Source: a virus. From it: DNA of 64,000 nt. The number at the start of each line of letters is the position of its first letter. Positions within the stretch are counted from its first letter, which is position 1. The stretch lies in IMG/VR virus record IMGVR_UViG_3300018414_000007, positions 17,107-81,106 of that record. One strand, given 5' to 3'. Below the pieces are notes generated by a model. The model searched no databases and had not been told where the DNA came from. It saw nothing but the letters and a program-made list of their open reading frames with translations. Made by a program: the position numbers and the translations under genes. Of the stretch, positions 1-28,142 are shown in pieces.

Positions 1-1528
1 CTACAGATTGAGATAAAGTCATATCAACTCCAGCAAACTGATTAAAGTTTGATGTCTGTCCTTGGAATTTACCTTTACCTTCTTCAAATGAGTTTATGAA
101 TGCTATACCAGCTGTATCAAAGTAATACATCCATTTATCAATATCTATACCTTGTGATCTAGGAATTTGTGCAATATCCATAATCATCTTCTTACCTTTA
201 GCTTTAGCTATCTCAAGTTCCATTCTATACATGATGATGTTGTATAGATATTGGTGATGTTTAACTAAGTCTACTAAAGAAGTTGGTTGAGAGTTTCTAC
301 CATTAGATACTGCTCCTACAAATCCAAGTTTACAAAGACTAGGATTATCTATAGTTCTATATTGAATACTCTTAGGTCTAATTCTTGTATAAATAGCTTG
401 ACCTATTTTAGTACCTTCCCATACTTCAGATATCCAAATCCATTCTACAGTTTCTCCATTTTCCTTTACAGGTTTATATGTTTCATCTACTATAGTTTCA
501 GACTTCTCAAGTGTTTGTGGATCATAAGTAGTTAGATAACCTATTTTTCTCATAGACTTCCATTCTACTCTTGTAACTCTTACATAACCACTTCTATGAG
601 TATTATCAAAGCTTGGTCTAGTATAAGAGATAGGAACAATAGGACCAGTAGCTGGACCCATAGGCATTCTAGTTTGACCTGCTACACCTGTTGTACCACT
701 GTCTATTGCAGTTATATCATCCTCTGATAGATCACTACCATAAGTATCTATAACTTCACTAGGAGTACAATACTTAGTATGAGCTCCCCATTGAGAGTCT
801 TCAATAAAGTCTTTATCTGGGTTTTTATCATAATCAAAATCTAATGGATTAACTACTTCACAAATAGGTTCACCATTTTCAATACCAACATAGTAGAACT
901 CTTCAGAAGTAATTAAACTATCTTTAAATCCTTTATTAAATTTATATTCTAGATTTTGTTGTTTTACAAGATATTCAGCTATTCTATTAGCTGTTACTTC
1001 TCTCATATCATTTAGAGAGTATGTAGAGTAATCCTGTAATTGTTTTGGAGTTTGTTGTTGAGGAGGATTAGGATTTTGTATATTAACTCCTTGTTGTTGT
1101 AACTGTCCTACTAGTTCTTGTTCTAAGAAGTCTAGTACTAGTTCTTTCTTTTTATCTTCTATCTGAGATACTGCATCTTCATTTACAGCAACTACTCTAA
1201 AGTTAAAAGGACGCTTAATTTCTTCTCCTTCTAAAAGTTTTAGTTTAGGAGTAATGATATTATAGTTTTGTAACTTAGCTGGAAACTCTTCTTTTAATCC
1301 ATATGGATTAGTAATGTATCTCCAGTCTTCAGGATCTATAATAGAGTTATATAAATCATAATTGATCTTTTTCTTTTGAAAAGAGTTATATCCTACACTT
1401 AATGAGTGTGAAGTAGATAGTCCAATAATGAAGTCTACATTTTGCTTTCCCCACTCTTCATCCTTTTTTGATCTAGGAAGTTTCTGTCTTGGAAAGGAAT
1501 ATGGTAAATTATAATTTATATCTGACAT
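1..1528 (-). CDS. Portal protein (crAss-like), runs off the left edge of the window
   Basis: Not in the ORF track. Read by hand from ATG at 1528: MSDINYNLPYSFPRQKLPRSKKDEEWGK...KINYDLYN...PAKLQNYNIITPKLKLLEGEEIKRPFNFRVVAVNEDAVS, the typical crAss-like portal N-terminus. Directly downstream of TerL. Confidence 0.9.
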   Translation of the reverse strand, partial: MSDINYNLPYSFPRQKLPRSKKDEEWGKQNVDFIIGLSTSHSLSVGYNSFQKKKINYDLYNSIIDPEDWRYITNPYGLKEEFPAKLQNYNIITPKLKLLEGEEIKRPFNFRVVAVNEDAVSQIEDKKKELVLDFLEQELVGQLQQQGVNIQNPNPPQQQTPKQLQDYSTYSLNDMREVTANRIAEYLVKQQNLEYKFNKGFKDSLITSEEFYYVGIENGEPICEVVNPLDFDYDKNPDKDFIEDSQWGAHTKYCTPSEVIDTYGSDLSEDDITAIDSGTTGVAGQTRMPMGPATGPIVPISYTRPSFDNTHRSGYVRVTRVEWKSMRKIGYLTTYDPQTLEKSETIVDETYKPVKENGETVEWIWISEVWEGTKIGQAIYTRIRPKSIQYRTIDNPSLCKLGFVGAVSNGRNSQPTSLVDLVKHHQYLYNIIMYRMELEIAKAKGKKMIMDIAQIPRSQGIDIDKWMYYFDTAGIAFINSFEEGKGKFQGQTSNFNQFAGVDMTLSQSV

Positions 1529-1546
1529 TAAGAAATAATAATTTTA

Positions 1547-1578
1547 CAAAATTAATCAATTTATTTTGAATTTCCAAA
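1547..1578 (-). promoter_or_regulatory. Bacteroidota primary-sigma promoter upstream of portal
   Basis: Minus strand TTTG-N20-TAATTTTG matches the -33/-7 consensus TTTG/TAnnTTTG. Confidence 0.7.
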
Positions 1579-3783
1579 TTAATAATATTGAGGCTTTCTA
1601 TTTACAAATAATTGTCTAGTAAAAAAGTTATCAACTTCATCAACATCTAACTGAGGTTCTTCTACTTGGATCTTGTGCATTTCCAAATCTTGCATCATTA
1701 CAAGCATAAAAGCAATGACTCTATCAAAGTTACCATCTTTATTATAACCTATTAATTCTTTTAATAGAGGTATACTAGGTATCTTAGTTAATTGTAATTT
1801 CCCTGGTTCTAATTCAGTCTTTAACCAATCTCTAGTCATAATCTCTATAGCATCTTTTATTTGGTTAGTCATGTGAGTACCAAATACTCTATCTACTTTA
1901 GTATTAGGAGATATAGACTTTATAATAGCAGGTTGTCTACAAAGTAAATGTAAACTATTCTTTGTTTCAAAATAAGCTTTAATTCCTGGAGTTTGATTTT
2001 CATACAATGCTTGTGCATTATAATACTCTAGTAATCTTCTACACTGTTCATAGAAATCACTAGCAAATTCTGGTCTACCAGTGTATTCAGCTACAAGTGT
2101 ATGATAAGTTTGGTCTGCATTAACAAATCTTTTATATATCATTATAGAACCCATAGAAGAAGAGCTATCAGCTTGATCTTGGTCTATACTATCTATACCA
2201 GCTATATATGTACCATATTGAGGATTCTCAATAGGTTGTTCCCATATTACTACAGCTCCTCTAGGATCTTTAGAATACTTAGTAGGATAGTCACAAGGAG
2301 TTAAATCATGGTCTACTTTAAACATAGCTTTACCATTTTCATCTCTTTGCATCCAACCAGTAGCACCTAATTCTTTTAATCTTCTATTAGATTCTATATT
2401 AGCTAGATGTTCTTTTAGTTCAGCTGTAGGGAATATATTACCTTGTTGTACTAAAAATGCTTCAGATGGAACTACTGGTCTATTCTGTAACTCATCATAT
2501 AGAGGTTGTTTACTTCTACCATTAGCTAGTTTAACTCTTTCATTCTCTAAGAACTTTCTAGCTTGAACTTCATCAGTAACTCCTTCATCATTCTTAAACT
2601 GATTAAGAGTTTTCCAAGCAGGTACAAAATAACCTATCTTACCTTTGTTTTCATACTCATCTTCAAATACTAAACAATCATAAGGTTCAGGATGGTAGAA
2701 CACTTCTTTAACAGCTTCAGTACTACCTCCAGCCATATCACCACCTGTACCAAACATCCATATAGTACCAAACTTTTCTGAACCATTCATAGTACATTCT
2801 TTTAATTGACCTAGAGCTAATAAGAGATTACCCATAAAACCAATCTCTTCTAAAGCTACAAATCCTGGTCTTGTTCCATTGGCAGCCATAGGATTGTCTG
2901 CAAATGACCTATGATGAATCATAGACTTCGACCCTTTCTTTACCCAGTTATTACCTATCTTTTGATCATACTCAGCTACAACAGTTTTACCAGATTCCCA
3001 AGAGCCTGAGAATTTCTTTAAGAAAGGAGCAGGATAATATCTATCACCTAACTCCATTCCACCAGTAAGATTCTCTAGTCCTAGTCTAACTTTCTTAAGT
3101 AAACCAGAACTATATTTAGTATCAATAGCTCCTACTAGAGTTTCACTCTTAGCTTCTTTTAAATCACTATAAGAGAATACTCCATCATGTAAGAAGTTCC
3201 AAGCTATAAGATTAGCTGCAAAGAAAGATTTACCACCACCTCTAGCTTCTATATCAACAACATTCTTAGCATTGTTATACATAAGAGGTCTACCAAGATC
3301 TTCTTTATGATTCCATCTTAAGTAGTCTCTAGCTTCAACATAATTAACTGGAACATATCTTTTAGGTAAACTACGAGCTTCTCCTAATCTAATATCATCC
3401 CAAGGTTCTATCTGAATTTGTTTACATTCAAACTCATCATAGAATAACATTGTATCTTTTAATGACCTATCACAAGTATTGTAATGGTCATATTCAAAAC
3501 CAGAGAAACCTCTAGCTTCCATAAAAAGATATCCTTTCTCCCATTCTAAATCTCTGAGGAAAGGATGATCTATTACCTTATTTTTACTATTCTTAGTTTT
3601 ATTTAATTCTATCTTCCAATGGTTAATGTATTGATATACAGGTCCAGGCATATACTTACCACCAGACCAATAACCTTCAATACATCTCCTTCTCTCCTCT
3701 TTCCAGAAAGTTCTATAGTCTAAACTGAGAGGATTTAACTTCTCAATCTTTTGTTTGAAATTAGAATTAGATACATAACTCAT
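1579..3783 (-). CDS. terL: Terminase large subunit
   Basis: Walker A-like EARGGGKS, Walker B VALEEIG, motif III FGTGG, RNase H-like nuclease YIAGIDSID and C-terminal GNFDRVIAFM. Adjacent to portal. Confidence 0.95.
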   Translation of the reverse strand: MSYVSNSNFKQKIEKLNPLSLDYRTFWKEERRRCIEGYWSGGKYMPGPVYQYINHWKIELNKTKNSKNKVIDHPFLRDLEWEKGYLFMEARGFSGFEYDHYNTCDRSLKDTMLFYDEFECKQIQIEPWDDIRLGEARSLPKRYVPVNYVEARDYLRWNHKEDLGRPLMYNNAKNVVDIEARGGGKSFFAANLIAWNFLHDGVFSYSDLKEAKSETLVGAIDTKYSSGLLKKVRLGLENLTGGMELGDRYYPAPFLKKFSGSWESGKTVVAEYDQKIGNNWVKKGSKSMIHHRSFADNPMAANGTRPGFVALEEIGFMGNLLLALGQLKECTMNGSEKFGTIWMFGTGGDMAGGSTEAVKEVFYHPEPYDCLVFEDEYENKGKIGYFVPAWKTLNQFKNDEGVTDEVQARKFLENERVKLANGRSKQPLYDELQNRPVVPSEAFLVQQGNIFPTAELKEHLANIESNRRLKELGATGWMQRDENGKAMFKVDHDLTPCDYPTKYSKDPRGAVVIWEQPIENPQYGTYIAGIDSIDQDQADSSSSMGSIMIYKRFVNADQTYHTLVAEYTGRPEFASDFYEQCRRLLEYYNAQALYENQTPGIKAYFETKNSLHLLCRQPAIIKSISPNTKVDRVFGTHMTNQIKDAIEIMTRDWLKTELEPGKLQLTKIPSIPLLKELIGYNKDGNFDRVIAFMLVMMQDLEMHKIQVEEPQLDVDEVDNFFTRQLFVNRKPQYY

Positions 3784-3983
3784 TACTGTTTAAAATAACC
3801 TGATGGTACATGGAGTGTTGTGACTATTTCTATATTACTATCATCTTCTTTATAGTACATACTAAGGTCTCCTTTTTCAGTATCATCTATAAACTCTGTT
3901 TTAAAATTAGTAGGCATCTTATAATTAATATCTTCCTTTATAATTTGTACAAAGTCTTCTGGTAATTTTAGTTCTTTTTCCAT
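3783..3983 (-). CDS. Hypothetical protein (66 aa, likely start MEKELK)
   Basis: The ATG at 3983 avoids overlap with the upstream gene and fits the tight operon packing. Confidence 0.6.
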   Translation of the reverse strand: MEKELKLPEDFVQIIKEDINYKMPTNFKTEFIDDTEKGDLSMYYKEDDSNIEIVTTLHVPSGYFKQ

Positions 3984-25029: not shown

Positions 25030-25869
25030 ATGAAAATAAAAATTGATAATTGGAAAATAGGTTCTGATCCAGAAGTTTTCCTTCATAATAAAAGTACAAA
25101 AGAAGTAGTATCTGCAATTCCCTTTATTCCGGGAGATAAACATGATCCATACCAAATACCTACATTACCAGAGGGTCATATGATTCAAACTGATAATATA
25201 ATGGTAGAGTATTGTTTACCTCCTACAAGTGATTATAGGGCTTTAATTAAGTCTTTTAGAGACTGTATAGCATATACTAATAATACTATACCAAGTGAAT
25301 TAGAAGTGGTTGTTAAAGCTTCTGCAAATGTAAGTGAACAATACTTACAAGATGAACAAGCTAAAAGATTTGGATGTGATCCAGATTTTAATGCTTGGAC
25401 AGATGATTTAAACAATCCTCCTAATAGTGATACTAATCTTAGAACTTGTGGTGGTCATATCCATATTGGCTATGATAATCCAGACTATGAACTTTCAAAG
25501 AAATTAATTAAAGCGTTAGATATATTTTTAGGTGTTCCATCTATTCTTTTAGATCCTGATAAAGATAGAAAGAAAATGTATGGTAAAGCTGGTGCACATA
25601 GGTTAAAAACTTATGGTGTAGAATATAGAGGTTTATCTAATTTCTGGTTGGCAGAAGAAGAATTAACTCAGTTAGTATTTAATGGAGTTAGAATGGCCAT
25701 TGCTATGATTAATAGTTCTGAATCTTACTTAGATAAGATGAGTGATACATTACAGTTAAAGATTCAAACTTGTATTAATACAGGAGACGAAGAGTTAGCT
25801 CAACAACTTGTACATCAACTTAGTTTATCTAGTTTATTGGCTGGTTCTACTAAAGTATATATTGACTAA
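25030..25869 (+). CDS. phiEco32-like COOH-NH2 ligase (type 2)
   Basis: IGSDPEVF, DNIMVEY, FGCDPDFNAW, RTCGGHIHIG, YGKAG and GVEYRGLSNFW motifs. Confidence 0.9.
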   Translation: MKIKIDNWKIGSDPEVFLHNKSTKEVVSAIPFIPGDKHDPYQIPTLPEGHMIQTDNIMVEYCLPPTSDYRALIKSFRDCIAYTNNTIPSELEVVVKASANVSEQYLQDEQAKRFGCDPDFNAWTDDLNNPPNSDTNLRTCGGHIHIGYDNPDYELSKKLIKALDIFLGVPSILLDPDKDRKKMYGKAGAHRLKTYGVEYRGLSNFWLAEEELTQLVFNGVRMAIAMINSSESYLDKMSDTLQLKIQTCINTGDEELAQQLVHQLSLSSLLAGSTKVYID

Positions 25870-25880
25870 TTAAAGAAACT

Positions 25881-25951
25881 TAAGAGTAGTGATAGCCTTG
25901 AGTTCGCTTTAGTTACTAATTTATTGGTAGCCTCCGGCTATCCTACTTTTA
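25881..25951 (+). ncRNA. Structured element upstream of the GATase start
   Basis: TAAGAGTAG-T-GATAGCC/GGCTATC-CTACTTTTA closing stem; inner GTTACTAA/TTGGTAGC hairpin. Confidence 0.5.
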
Positions 25952-25968
25952 AATTAAATAAAACAAAT

Positions 25969-26000
25969 ATGTGTGGATTAATATTTTGATGTGTGGATTA
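25969..26000 (+). repeat. Duplicated GATase start ATGTGTGGATTA (MCGL) x2
   Basis: Exact 12-bp direct repeat at 25969 and 25989, giving mini-ORFs MCGLIF* and MCGLYSLSLY*. Confidence 0.85.
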
Positions 26001-26015
26001 TATTCACTATCTTTG
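25985..26015 (+). promoter_or_regulatory. Bacteroidota promoter for the HNH gene
   Basis: TTTG-N19-TATCTTTG, ending 5 nt before ATG 26021. Confidence 0.65.
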
Positions 26016-26020
26016 TATTA

Positions 26021-26551
26021 ATGAAAATATGTAAAAAATGTAATGTTGAAAAATCTCTAGGAGAGTTTCACAAAGATAAAAGAACTAAGGATGGATTATA
26101 TAAATGGTGTAAATCTTGTAAAAAAGAGTATGATTTAATATACAGAAAAACAGATAAAATTCAAAATTTATATAAGTCTAAAGAGTATAGAAATAGAAAA
26201 AAGGAATATAAAAAATGGAGAGATATGACTGATCCAAGAGAACAACTTTTAATATCTGCTAAAGCTAGGGCTAAAAAGTATAATATACCTTTTAATTTAA
26301 CTATAGATGATATAGAATTAAGAGCTTATTGCCCTTTATTGGAAATTAAATTAGAAAGAAAACAATATGGAAAGGTGGGTTCATTTAATCCAAATTCCCC
26401 TTCTTTAGATAGAATAATTCCTAGTTTAGGTTATGTAAAAGGAAATATAGAGGTAATTTCAATGAAAGCAAATATAATGAAAAATAACGCAAGTATAGAA
26501 GAATTAAAAACATTTGCGAATAATATATTAAGGTGGTATGATTATGATTAA
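26021..26551 (+). CDS. HNH-type homing endonuclease with N-terminal Zn finger
   Basis: CKKC...CKSC, then CPLL and SPSLDRIIPSLGYVKGNIEVISMKAN. Confidence 0.85.
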   Translation: MKICKKCNVEKSLGEFHKDKRTKDGLYKWCKSCKKEYDLIYRKTDKIQNLYKSKEYRNRKKEYKKWRDMTDPREQLLISAKARAKKYNIPFNLTIDDIELRAYCPLLEIKLERKQYGKVGSFNPNSPSLDRIIPSLGYVKGNIEVISMKANIMKNNASIEELKTFANNILRWYDYD

Positions 26552-28142
26552 AATAATATTAATATTAGCATTTATAAATTATTTGCTATACTTCCTTAAT
26601 GGAAGAAAAAAGACTAATTTAGCTCTTTGTGGCTTAATTGGTTACTCTGGACAAGAGAACTATAATATAGACAAAATAAGGTTTCTAATGCTATGGAATA
26701 GTGTAGAAAGAGGTAAAGATGCTACAGGCATATATACCCCCTCAACAGGACTTATAAAAGATAATGAACCTGCTGGTAAGTTTCTATTTCAAAGTCATTT
26801 TAAAAAATTAGTTGATGATAATCAATTAATAGCTCATGTAAGAGCTAAAACAATTGGAGCAAATTTAGTTAAAAACGCTCATCCATTTGATGAAGAGAAT
26901 ATTGTATTAGCTCATAATGGTACTTTAGTTGACTATGTAGCGTTAGCATCCAAATATGATATGAAAGCTCTTAATTGGGATGTAGATTCTCAAGTATTAT
27001 CTTTTGGTATTAATAGAGCATTTAATGCTGAAACTACTTTAGATAACTTAAATATTGAAACTTTAAGTGAATATAAAGGTGCTGCTGCTTTACTATTTTA
27101 TAGTAAAAACTTAGATATGATATTTGTATTTAAGGATAAAGAGAGACCTTTATTTTATGGGTATGATCTTGATGGAGGAATGTATATGTCTTCTATTGAA
27201 GAGTCATTAAAAGCTGCAGGATTATTTGAAATTAAAGCGTTTACTGATAATACTTTGTATGCTATTGATCATGGTGAAATTGTAAAGACTTGGGTTTATA
27301 AAACCTATGCTGAACTTAATAAAACAGCTTATGTTGGTAAAGTTCGAGGGAGGGAACCAGGTCAGAGATTCCCAAAGTTAAAAAAAGGGGAAAGAGGAAT
27401 AGACATCACAAATGGAACCACTAAAGCATATTGGTTCTTAGATATGTGGCTATATTCTAATACCCAAACATGGAATCATCAAAGAGGAATCTATGGTAAG
27501 TTTGCTGAAATGAAAACTGGAAGGTTTTATTTAGTAACTGGATTCTATGCTGAAGATATAATGTTTGTTCAGGTAAAAGATGAGAATGGAAATGATGGAA
27601 TGGCAGCCTTAAGTTCATTTGATATAGATAGGTGTATTCCTCAACCTGAACAGTTATTTAGAATAACGGCTCCCCTTGTTGCTAAAAAGACAAAACAAAA
27701 ACTTTGGGAAAAAGGACAAATAGTTGAATTGATGAGTTATGATATAACAGAAGGATCAGTTTCTTTCTGGTCTGATTCAGAAAATGCAGAATACGAAATT
27801 CCTATGAAGTGTTGTAAACCATTAACACCTCAAGAAGTTATAGATTTCTGCTTAGAAACAGAAGATCCTAAAGATAAAGGAACTAAAGAACCATTACTTA
27901 TTCAACCCGCTCCTGAACCATCACCTTTTATAGAAAATACACCTGAGCCTGAACCTTTAGGAGATTTCATATCAACTCCAGTATTCTTGGGAGCTTTGGA
28001 ATTAATTGAAAGTGGATTAGGTAAATTAGAAGAAAAGTATGATGAAAATGGAGATTTAACCCCAGAAATTAATGCTATACGTATGGACATCACAAATTGC
28101 AAAGATAAGACATATCTTGACAACTTACTGGTACATAATTAA
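26538..28142 (+). CDS. Class II (Ntn) glutamine amidotransferase; catalytic Cys at 26628
   Basis: CGLIGYSG, RGKDATG, AHVRAKT, NAHPF, HNGTL and VDSQ motifs. Confidence 0.88.
   Translation: MIMIKIILILAFINYLLYFLNGRKKTNLALCGLIGYSGQENYNIDKIRFLMLWNSVERGKDATGIYTPSTGLIKDNEPAGKFLFQSHFKKLVDDNQLIAHVRAKTIGANLVKNAHPFDEENIVLAHNGTLVDYVALASKYDMKALNWDVDSQVLSFGINRAFNAETTLDNLNIETLSEYKGAAALLFYSKNLDMIFVFKDKERPLFYGYDLDGGMYMSSIEESLKAAGLFEIKAFTDNTLYAIDHGEIVKTWVYKTYAELNKTAYVGKVRGREPGQRFPKLKKGERGIDITNGTTKAYWFLDMWLYSNTQTWNHQRGIYGKFAEMKTGRFYLVTGFYAEDIMFVQVKDENGNDGMAALSSFDIDRCIPQPEQLFRITAPLVAKKTKQKLWEKGQIVELMSYDITEGSVSFWSDSENAEYEIPMKCCKPLTPQEVIDFCLETEDPKDKGTKEPLLIQPAPEPSPFIENTPEPEPLGDFISTPVFLGALELIESGLGKLEEKYDENGDLTPEINAIRMDITNCKDKTYLDNLLVHN

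Follow-up and report, generated by a model that had tools for sequence, protein, structure and literature searches.

Class II glutamine amidotransferases need cysteine as their free N-terminal residue, which raises the question of how such an enzyme can still be made when another gene stands between its original start codon and that cysteine. This arrangement is found in the virus record IMGVR_UViG_3300018414_000007 (81,106 bp), of which we analyzed a stretch of 64,000 nt, referred to here as the window; positions follow the numbering of this whole stretch. Inside the window, short stranded copies of an amidotransferase start (encoding MCGL) are followed by a gene for a putative HNH-type homing endonuclease. 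The amidotransferase resumes behind that gene at its catalytic Cys codon, preceded in frame by a hydrophobic leader (Table 1). Based on comparisons with related loci, we consider it probable that a mobile cassette composed of a promoter, the HNH gene and the leader occupies the first codons of the class II amidotransferase gene, and that the enzyme is matured by the autoproteolysis of N-terminal nucleophile (Ntn) enzymes.

Stranded starts and the HNH gene

The sequence-only reading of this DNA had described a MCGLIF* frame, a second copy of the same start, the HNH open reading frame (ORF) and the Cys codon of the enzyme body. Each of them was recovered where Table 1 lists it, as was a leader start in frame with the Cys, for which two ATG codons were read. 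The MCGL N-terminus had been counted three times, and this held in part: ATGTGTGGATTA occurs exactly twice in the 64-kb window, and the copy counted third, at the enzyme body, reduces to TGTGGcTTAAT. The first 15 nt of stub 1 are the same as the start of leaderless relatives, for example ATGTGCGGATTAATAGG in locus L007, and leaderless relatives also have similar A-rich stretches directly before ATG-TGY. With up to one mismatch allowed, the two occurrences of the repeat compare with an expected 0.40, and 5 of 100 shuffled sequences gave at least two. The support for the stubs comes from the comparison of loci rather than from the repeat count in the window.

Searches based on the HNH protein found eight further loci with an HNH relative directly 5' of an amidotransferase gene, so that nine loci with DNA could be compared (the window, L005, L069, L212, L214, L216, L217, L218 and L219). 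The HNH proteins of the eight other loci are 46–64% identical to that of the window, their linked enzymes are 26–52% identical with open frames throughout, and all nine HNH-linked enzymes bear a leader. In seven of the nine, HNH stop and leader ATG overlap or adjoin directly (gaps of -77 to 0); the gaps are +6 in L218 and +17 in L005. A stranded ATGTG[TC] stub within 220 nt 5' of the HNH gene is likewise present in seven of the nine, compared with none of 11 HNH-free leader-bearing loci and a background of 0.11 per 220 nt. Outside the window the stubs read MCGLRKHK..* (L069), MCGILMIR* (L212), MCGII* (L214), MCGILIKNFI* (L216), MCRNH* (L217) and MCK* (L218). The stubs retain 2 to 5 amidotransferase codons, and an A-rich stretch, read by eye and unscored, precedes each.

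The second stub of the window has counterparts elsewhere. Two ATGTGT starts stand before the HNH gene in L212 (2440–2490; MCGILMIR* at 2440 and a second start at 2469), and weaker look-alikes of stub 2 were seen by eye at the same place in the alignment of L069 and L005. Duplicated stubs may be a recurrent by-product of the insertion process.

For the wider family, counts of amidotransferase homologues refer to the best 120 of 244 matches in the protein database and those of HNH relatives to the best 120 of 340, whereas IMG/VR leader states were counted in the 28 loci L003–L030, with 37 more distant loci (L031–L067) left out. The HNH gene was never next to a leaderless allele, neither among the 55 leaderless database homologues nor among the 16 leaderless IMG/VR loci, a hint that the endonuclease may cut leaderless sites and spare occupied ones. 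Seven HNH relatives could be paired with amidotransferases by contig match, their longest contigs having exactly equal lengths, which is an indirect assignment, and their partners are 7 of 64 leader-bearing versus 0 of 55 leaderless homologues (Fisher p 0.011). In five of these seven pairs, the HNH C-terminus and stop can also spell the start of the partner's leader over 7–14 nt (for example ..WYGNN* with MVTIK...). Mismatched pairs gave 0–4 nt, except for two pairs that share one junction.

We treat the inserted gene as a candidate HNH-type homing endonuclease, judging by its sequence matches. Its product matched PHROG families 3322 ('endonuclease', 2.1e-32), 1035 ('endonuclease VII', 1.2e-31) and 3118 ('HNH endonuclease', 7e-9), and by tblastn it matched GenBank phage genes annotated as HNH endonuclease. 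No match was found in Pfam, even at E values up to 10, or in the PDB sequences with a 28-sequence profile. The gene is present as a single copy in the 81-kb virus record. The protein database holds 47 relatives with 52–78% identity, and more distant ones (46% identity or less) are found within other genes, such as those for ribonucleotide reductase and DNA polymerase. In L071 and L072 (about 880–3850), HNH relatives of 37–39% identity stand between a 592-residue ORF and an 82-residue ORF; these ORFs resemble two pieces of one replication gene, and a gene split by the endonuclease is possible there.

The presence of the HNH gene at the amidotransferase is patchy, and only one of the 28 IMG/VR loci carries it directly 5' of the enzyme gene. 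No close relative was found among GenBank phages by blastn or in viral contigs by a peptide-pattern scan with a single protein. A metagenome scan with the HNH alignment gave no locus with both HNH and amidotransferase genes among the matches listed, and a degenerate DNA pattern of stub, promoter and HNH gene gave no match in viral contigs. An empty-site allele was sought in the only public holder of the stretch that is listed, a DNA run labelled as a freshwater metagenome and probably the source of the record; it contained only the HNH-bearing form and no joints.

The enzyme, its leader and the surrounding locus

From the Cys onward, the downstream protein is, by its sequence matches and its structure model, a class II (Ntn) glutamine amidotransferase. 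It matched Pfam GATase_6 (E 1.6e-12; 48 bits, cutoff 27) and, close to the cutoff of 23 bits, GATase_4 (23.8 bits). Among PHROGs it matched 4736 and 18128 ('aminotransferase'), with profile position 1 aligned to ORF residue 30. In tblastn against GenBank phages, all 30 of the 30 matches listed begin at query residue 1, which is the Cys. Met stands immediately in front of this Cys in 53 of the 55 leaderless homologues; the remaining two read L-C and V-C, once each. In the AlphaFold2 model, built from 17 homologues, residue 30, which follows Cys29 directly, opens the first strand, in a block with a predicted local distance difference test (pLDDT) score of 94, and pLDDT is above 90 over much of the N-terminal domain. 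The top Foldseek matches of the model are Escherichia coli GlmS and PurF (E about 1e-11, probability 1.00), with Bacillus subtilis PurF also among the matches.

The protein consists of a class II (Ntn) glutaminase domain of ~230 residues, followed by a beta-rich part and C-terminal helices. The C-terminal half has no family match in Pfam or PHROGs. Residues about 260–534 (27320–28142) were confidently modelled as the beta-rich part and then three helices, and the listed Foldseek alignments of 233–312 columns correspond to the length of the N-terminal domain. The leader–enzyme ORF is open over 534 codons, and the invariant glutaminase columns, the Cys first among them, are equal in leader-bearing and leaderless forms. 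With its open frame, its shared invariant columns and a confidently predicted alpha-beta-beta-alpha Ntn fold, the enzyme looks functional.

A leader precedes the Cys of the CG[LI][IV]GFSG motif in 65 of the 120 homologues, and the other 55 are leaderless; among the IMG/VR loci the numbers are 12 and 16 of 28. Leader length is 23–33 residues in 63 of the 65, the remaining two having 13 and 55. A cultured representative is the crAss-like Cellulophaga phage phi14:2 (L210, 1408–1500), in which gp051 has a hydrophobic leader of 31 residues, MTIIEIILVALFIHTVGFFLTKKRRINNVIS, followed by CGLFGW....

The design of the leader was scored on 65 leaders of 20–40 residues (63 from the database, together with those of L005 and L069). 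The best 17-residue hydropathy has a mean of 2.32 and a minimum of 1.70, in contrast to 0.47 for 506 control peptides taken from all frames of the window. Lys and Arg number 2.20 in the last 12 residues versus 0.17 before them, position -2 is Leu in 51 of the 65, and position -1 is Tyr in 29 and a small residue in 22. The sequence varies between clades, and the plan of a hydrophobic run followed by a basic patch is shared. Judging from these sequences, the leader is a constrained, regular pro-sequence in about half of the enzyme family. For the window leader, AlphaFold2 predicted a helix over residues 2–19 with low confidence, as it did residues 1–27 in general. The ratio of nonsynonymous to synonymous differences (pN/pS) in L004–L006 was 0.16/0.29 for the leader and 0.19/0.51 for the body, from differences too few and too saturated to judge selection.

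Two other roles for the region before the Cys were tried and rejected. A non-AUG start directly before the Cys fails because the preceding codon is never ATG, GTG, TTG, CTG or ATH in leader-bearing loci (0 of 21 have such a codon); since no possible start codon stands at -1 in any of the 21, the Cys can become N-terminal only by proteolysis. Signals for lipoproteins or export have a positively charged N-region, a hydrophobic core and a lipobox, L-[AS]-[GA]-C, or an A-x-A site. In the leaders, Lys and Arg follow the hydrophobic run and there is no lipobox, so that a lipoprotein or secretory signal was rejected as well. One may speculate from the hydrophobic run and its trailing positive charges that the leader is an N-out/C-in membrane tether from which the enzyme would be freed on cleavage.

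The leader is also very labile. On a FastTree tree of 122 enzyme bodies, inferred with leaders removed and with some long branches flagged, leader state requires 30 changes, and at least 20 of them are forced by strongly supported branches alone. Near-identical proteins differ in leader state or type (P0057 versus P0059; P0058 versus P0052 and P0055). The leaderless L007 and the leader-bearing L008 and L010 have very similar flanks (mean column identity of 92% over the entire three-row DNA alignment), and the segment replaced between these flanks ends exactly at the Cys codon. In L003 and L004 the bodies are 79% identical in DNA and the leaders only 62%; leader and body similarities disagree in several pairs. 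Because leader state, leader similarity and body similarity disagree in this way, we take the 5' end of the amidotransferase gene to be a recombination hot spot.

The amidotransferase belongs to a row of co-oriented genes that encode, from 5' to 3', a Peptidase_C26 / class I amidotransferase, a gamma-glutamyl cyclotransferase, a phiEco32-type COOH-NH2 ligase, the class II amidotransferase studied here, an Amidoligase_2 protein and another class II amidotransferase, which begins with the usual Met-Cys. The intergenic element between the ligase gene and the amidotransferase locus (Table 1) marks the original intergenic region. The fold of 25870–26030 has a z of -4.95, with none of 200 shuffles as stable, and a terminator-like site lies at 25926–25942. 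The 'gagttcgctttag' core of this element is also found upstream of the amidotransferase in L003 (about 3860–3930) and L004 (about 3850–3915). Behind the ligase stop of L005 (3340–3388), L007 and L008 (alignment columns 215–266) comes a short conserved frame (..KYFDxLPxDxxxVAS*) that partly coincides with the intergenic region; either a small gene or an alternative C-terminus may be encoded there. In L005 (2209–3342), the COOH-NH2 ligase gene 5' of the HNH gene consists of two ORFs (2209–2664 and 2920–3342), which may reflect a frameshift, an assembly error or a break.

The host promoter that the sequence-only reading had placed before the HNH gene is missing from the plus-strand sites of a sigma-70 scan, but a site at this position fits TTTG-N19-TAnnTTTG, which we take to be the -33/-7 consensus of Bacteroidota. 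The motif TTTG-N17-21-TAnnTTTG occurs eight times in the window (1547, 8461, 9000, 16372, 16677, 25985, 41321 and 61703), versus 2.74 expected, and only one of 100 shuffles reaches eight. As a sequence-based enrichment, this is consistent with a Bacteroidota host and with promoters used by the host polymerase. In seven of the nine HNH loci, TA[TC][CAT]TTTG stands 4–30 nt 5' of the HNH ATG, and five have the full -33/-7 pair.

Table 1. Features of the amidotransferase locus in the window
Feature	Position	Strand	Remarks
Stem-closed intergenic element with terminator-like hairpin	25881..25951	+	Separates the COOH-NH2 ligase gene from the amidotransferase locus
A-rich region for translation initiation at the original leaderless start of the amidotransferase	25952..25968	+	Read from sequence
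Stub 1, ATG TGT GGA TTA ATA TTT TGA (MCGLIF*)	25969..25989	+	Stop overlaps next ATG (TGATG)
Promoter-like site TTTG-N19-TATCTTTG, Bacteroidota -33/-7 type	25985..26015	+	Motif match
Stub 2, ATG TGT GGA TTA TAT TCA CTA TCT TTG TAT TAA (MCGLYSLSLY*)	25989..26021	+	Within promoter spacer; stop overlaps HNH ATG (TAATG)
Free-standing HNH / endonuclease VII-like putative homing endonuclease gene, 176 aa	26021..26551	+	PHROG matches; stop TAA 26549–26551
Leader (putative propeptide) MIMIKIILILAFINYLLYFLNGRKKTNLAL	26538..26627	+	30 aa from ATG 26538 or 28 aa from ATG 26544; start overlaps HNH end
Amidotransferase proper, catalytic Cys (CGLIGYSG...) to stop	26628..28142	+	TGT GGC TTA ATT GGT at 26628

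Origin of the proposed cassette and competing explanations

The HNH gene and the leader of the window have moved relative to the enzyme body. Among the matches listed, the window HNH protein is closest to P0122 (76% identity; support of 98 and 98/97 in the trees), the presumed neighbor of P0014 by contig match. The window leader shares 71% identity with the leader of P0014 and 52% with that of P0007, and the enzyme body groups with P0002–P0008 from its first residues on. With groups chosen after the trees had been seen, the approximately unbiased (AU) test rejected a grouping of the window with P0014 for the enzyme body (p 1.7e-6) and, more weakly, a grouping of the window with P0125 for the HNH proteins (p 0.022). 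Given the stubs and this conflict between the trees of HNH and leader and that of the body, we propose that a promoter–HNH–leader unit from a P0014-like source replaced a leaderless start.

In the mechanism that we propose, a promoter, an HNH gene and a 3' tail encoding the hydrophobic leader would insert within the first enzyme codons, presumably after cleavage by the endonuclease, whose target would probably be the leaderless ATG-TGT-GGA-TTA region. The old A-rich region and the ATG TGT GGA TTA start would be stranded upstream as one or two dead mini-ORFs. Transcription would then start from the cassette promoter or from upstream, and the enzyme would be translated from one of the two leader ATG codons. 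Because these overlap the HNH stop, the enzyme and the HNH gene are probably translated in a coupled manner. The resulting pro-enzyme would contain, in order, a membrane-helix-like segment of ~19 residues, then a basic patch and a linker, short and ending in ...L-A-L, followed by the catalytic Cys. Intramolecular autoproteolysis at the X-Cys bond, as in propeptide-bearing PurF-type amidotransferases and other Ntn enzymes, would yield the free N-terminal Cys. The enzyme is thus probably still made, since the insert brings a new start and a self-removable leader. A similar leader is selected in about half of the family, and for this reason the cassette appears to use a maturation route that already existed there.

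Judging by L005, where a leader with an initiation signal of its own stands behind the HNH gene and stubs are lacking, the leader is probably older than the cassette. The most economical history would begin with an HNH gene that settled before a leader-bearing allele. The HNH–leader composite would then have invaded leaderless alleles, cutting near codons 2–5 and leaving stubs, and later loss of the HNH gene, or recombination, would have produced both HNH-free leader-bearing alleles and leaderless ones. An element-supplied propeptide removed by Ntn autoproteolysis had been one of three rescues suggested beforehand. It is the only one of them that fits the comparative data, in that start and leader came with the HNH gene here, but the leader is not unique to the element. 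We keep its core for the genome of the window because of the stubs, the overlap between HNH stop and leader start, and the conflict between the HNH and leader trees and the body tree.

A number of points weigh against the proposed cassette and its mode of maturation. Eleven of the 12 leader-bearing IMG/VR loci are free of the HNH gene, and phi14:2 gp051, annotated as 'glucosamine-fructose-6-phosphate aminotransferase', has no endonuclease upstream. HNH-free relatives with the same leader had been named beforehand as an observation that would speak against an element-supplied propeptide, and they literally exist. Because such relatives carry it, the leader is not a one-off repair but a common pro-sequence of the enzyme family, and it may predate the cassette. 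Stubs are missing from L005 and L219. In a comparison of ten HNH-linked loci, HNH proteins are the more similar, the more similar the enzyme bodies are (Mantel rho 0.71, p 0.0004), so that most of the association between HNH gene and enzyme looks vertical, and leader similarity does not significantly follow HNH similarity (rho 0.08). The horizontal step therefore appears, from these sequences, to rest mainly on the pair of the window and P0014, for which the AU groups were selected with the trees in hand, and the pairing of HNH and amidotransferase genes in the protein database is indirect. Endonuclease activity is taken from PHROG and GenBank annotation, because Pfam and PDB sequences gave no match. 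Autoproteolysis in this amidotransferase family is proposed by analogy with the chemistry of the family, and the known PurF propeptides are short and not hydrophobic.

Some of these points could be explained if the leader were an old feature of the lineage. The HNH gene would then have settled before a gene that already bore a leader, the MCGL stubs would be debris of unrelated recombination with a leaderless allele, and no rescue would have taken place. The many HNH-free leader alleles, the dependence of HNH similarity on that of the enzyme body, the HNH gene of L005, which lacks a stub and stands before a leader equipped with an initiation region of its own, and the lack of a stub in L219 all favor this account. 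We nevertheless regard it as unlikely, since stubs are present in seven of nine HNH loci versus none of the 11 HNH-free leader loci, and since, by eye, the sequence in front of them is A-rich, as it is at leaderless starts, a pattern expected of a start that was cut and displaced. In addition, the HNH gene and the leader of the window share a nearest relative that differs from that of the body. A different objection concerns the cleavage itself: a host or phage protease could remove the leader, or the leader could stay as a membrane anchor on a protein that works without a free N-terminal Cys and might, for instance, serve the seven-enzyme cluster as a subunit with no catalytic role or with a different one. 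The leader does resemble an N-out/C-in anchor, with its hydrophobic run and then Lys or Arg; Leu at -2 and the frequent Tyr at -1 could form a protease recognition site, and model confidence is low over residues 1–27. We hold this to be improbable, because the Cys and the invariant columns are kept equally in leader-bearing and leaderless forms, and because a leader state that flips between near-identical enzymes is hard to fit with two modes of action. The lipoprotein box also does not fit, and the charges are on the wrong side for export.

That the amidotransferase was simply inactivated by the HNH gene and is decaying as an insertional pseudogene would agree with the separation of the original start from the body, but the intact 534-codon frame keeps all family-invariant residues, and the arrangement, its open frames and the leader architecture are conserved in the eight other loci. 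With frames intact at nine loci, a pseudogene is highly improbable. We give even less credence to a joining of the MCGL start to the body, either by RNA splicing through a minimal element or by ribosomal bypassing, both of which had been suggested as rescues by the sequence-only reading. Group I introns follow a 5' exon ending in U and end in G, whereas group II introns conform to GUGYG...AY; none of the junctions that restore ATG TGT GGC obeys these boundary rules when examined by hand. A search of 25700–26900 against Rfam, with E values up to 10, gave no intron family and no family above chance. The space left outside the HNH ORF, only about 115 nt, is too small for a normal group I or II intron core, as had been noted before. 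Folding of the ~100 nt that precede the Cys, where small hairpins had been reported, is no stronger than expected by chance (z -1.37; equalled by 16 of 200 shuffles), and 65 of 120 homologues have a leader frame that runs open and in phase into the Cys; splicing was dismissed on these grounds. Bypassing fared no better, as the gap from stub 1 to the Cys is ~640 nt and holds a complete, conserved gene of 176 codons. The direct repeats TGTGGATTAAT / TGTGGcTTAAT do flank the insert, and the homing-endonuclease element at T4 gene 60 can carry a bypass signal (10.1101/2022.08.31.505936). Against both routes, the stubs are of different lengths and sequences from locus to locus and two loci have none, while an in-frame leader is always present.

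Known systems and implications

Homing endonucleases persist in genes by means of introns, inteins, split genes whose halves reassemble, or a ribosomal hop. The nearest published parallels to the locus are inteins and introns with endonucleases, the split nrdA of phage Aeh1 and the bypass cassette of T4 gene 60. Inteins and endonuclease-carrying group I introns resemble the cassette described here in that a selfish insert in a coding region is neutralized by removal after transcription or translation. They differ from it in that the endonuclease here is a separate protein and there is no splicing; instead, an N-terminal peptide is proposed to be cut off by the nucleophile of the host protein itself.

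In Aeromonas phage Aeh1, where mobE splits nrdA, insertion-derived tails are reportedly needed for enzyme function (Crona et al. 2011, PMC3045599). As in the window, a free-standing HNH-family gene lies within a coding region and insertion sequences become new protein tails. In that account, however, nrdA is split into two polypeptides that reassemble via the tails, whereas only the first 2–5 codons are severed here and the new tail is presumably discarded. The T4 gene 60 / mobA cassette, with its 50-nt ribosomal bypass (Manning and Atkins, 10.1101/2022.08.31.505936), is similar in that an endonuclease element repeatedly enters one site of a phage enzyme gene and carries a device that saves expression. 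That device is recoding over 50 nt, in contrast to a new start and a putative propeptide in the window, where we saw no sign of bypassing.

Also comparable are the propeptide-bearing PurF-type enzymes of Bacillus subtilis and plants, which are class II amidotransferases with an N-terminal extension ending directly at the catalytic Cys. Their short propeptide is reportedly 'autocatalytically cleaved', and the plant enzyme is processed in E. coli as well (PMC7056826). Unlike those propeptides, the extension described here has 23–33 residues, is membrane-helix-like, and has a basic patch and Leu at -2, and its removal is putative. It is present or absent among near-identical genes, and in the window it is fused to an endonuclease gene. 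Escherichia phage vB_EcoP_SU10, a phiEco32-like phage, is a different solution to the problem of the N-terminal Cys. Its homologous coding sequence (L211, 1470–1503) is annotated from an ATT directly before the Cys TGT, so that no propeptide is needed, whereas the start in the window lies 28–30 codons upstream. A GGTGG ribosome-binding site and a small inverted repeat stand in front of the SU10 ATT.

In the literature, covered mainly through listings and abstracts, we came across no description of an amidotransferase gene with an endonuclease at its start, nor of any hydrophobic propeptide for this enzyme family. What appears to be new is a free-standing homing endonuclease made harmless by the presumed self-processing of the host enzyme, an arrangement akin to the known systems with an endonuclease inside a gene. 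It points to a further route by which homing endonucleases may survive, in which the start of a gene is severed and a new start is supplied together with a peptide that an Ntn enzyme can remove. The findings also bring to light a pro-sequence that is membrane-helix-like and very labile, carried by a phage amidotransferase of wide distribution that belongs to an amide-ligase gene cluster common to crAss-like and phiEco32-like phages. With phi14:2 gp051, both the removal of the leader and the target of the endonuclease become testable at the bench.

A more far-reaching proposal, which we put forward tentatively and hold to be somewhat more doubtful than probable, is that insertion at Met-Cys is a new route for a homing endonuclease into coding sequence that uses neither intron nor intein. 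The self-cleavage of the host protein would erase the damage, the leader would abolish the target, and the enzyme may be a tethered zymogen. If this is true, leader-bearing alleles would be immune to the endonuclease and would persist after its loss, which would explain the leader in about half of the alleles and the at least 20 to 30 flips of leader state on the tree. The membrane-helix leader, as part of a membrane-tethered zymogen, may then serve to time the seven-enzyme amide-ligase pathway of crAss-like phages.

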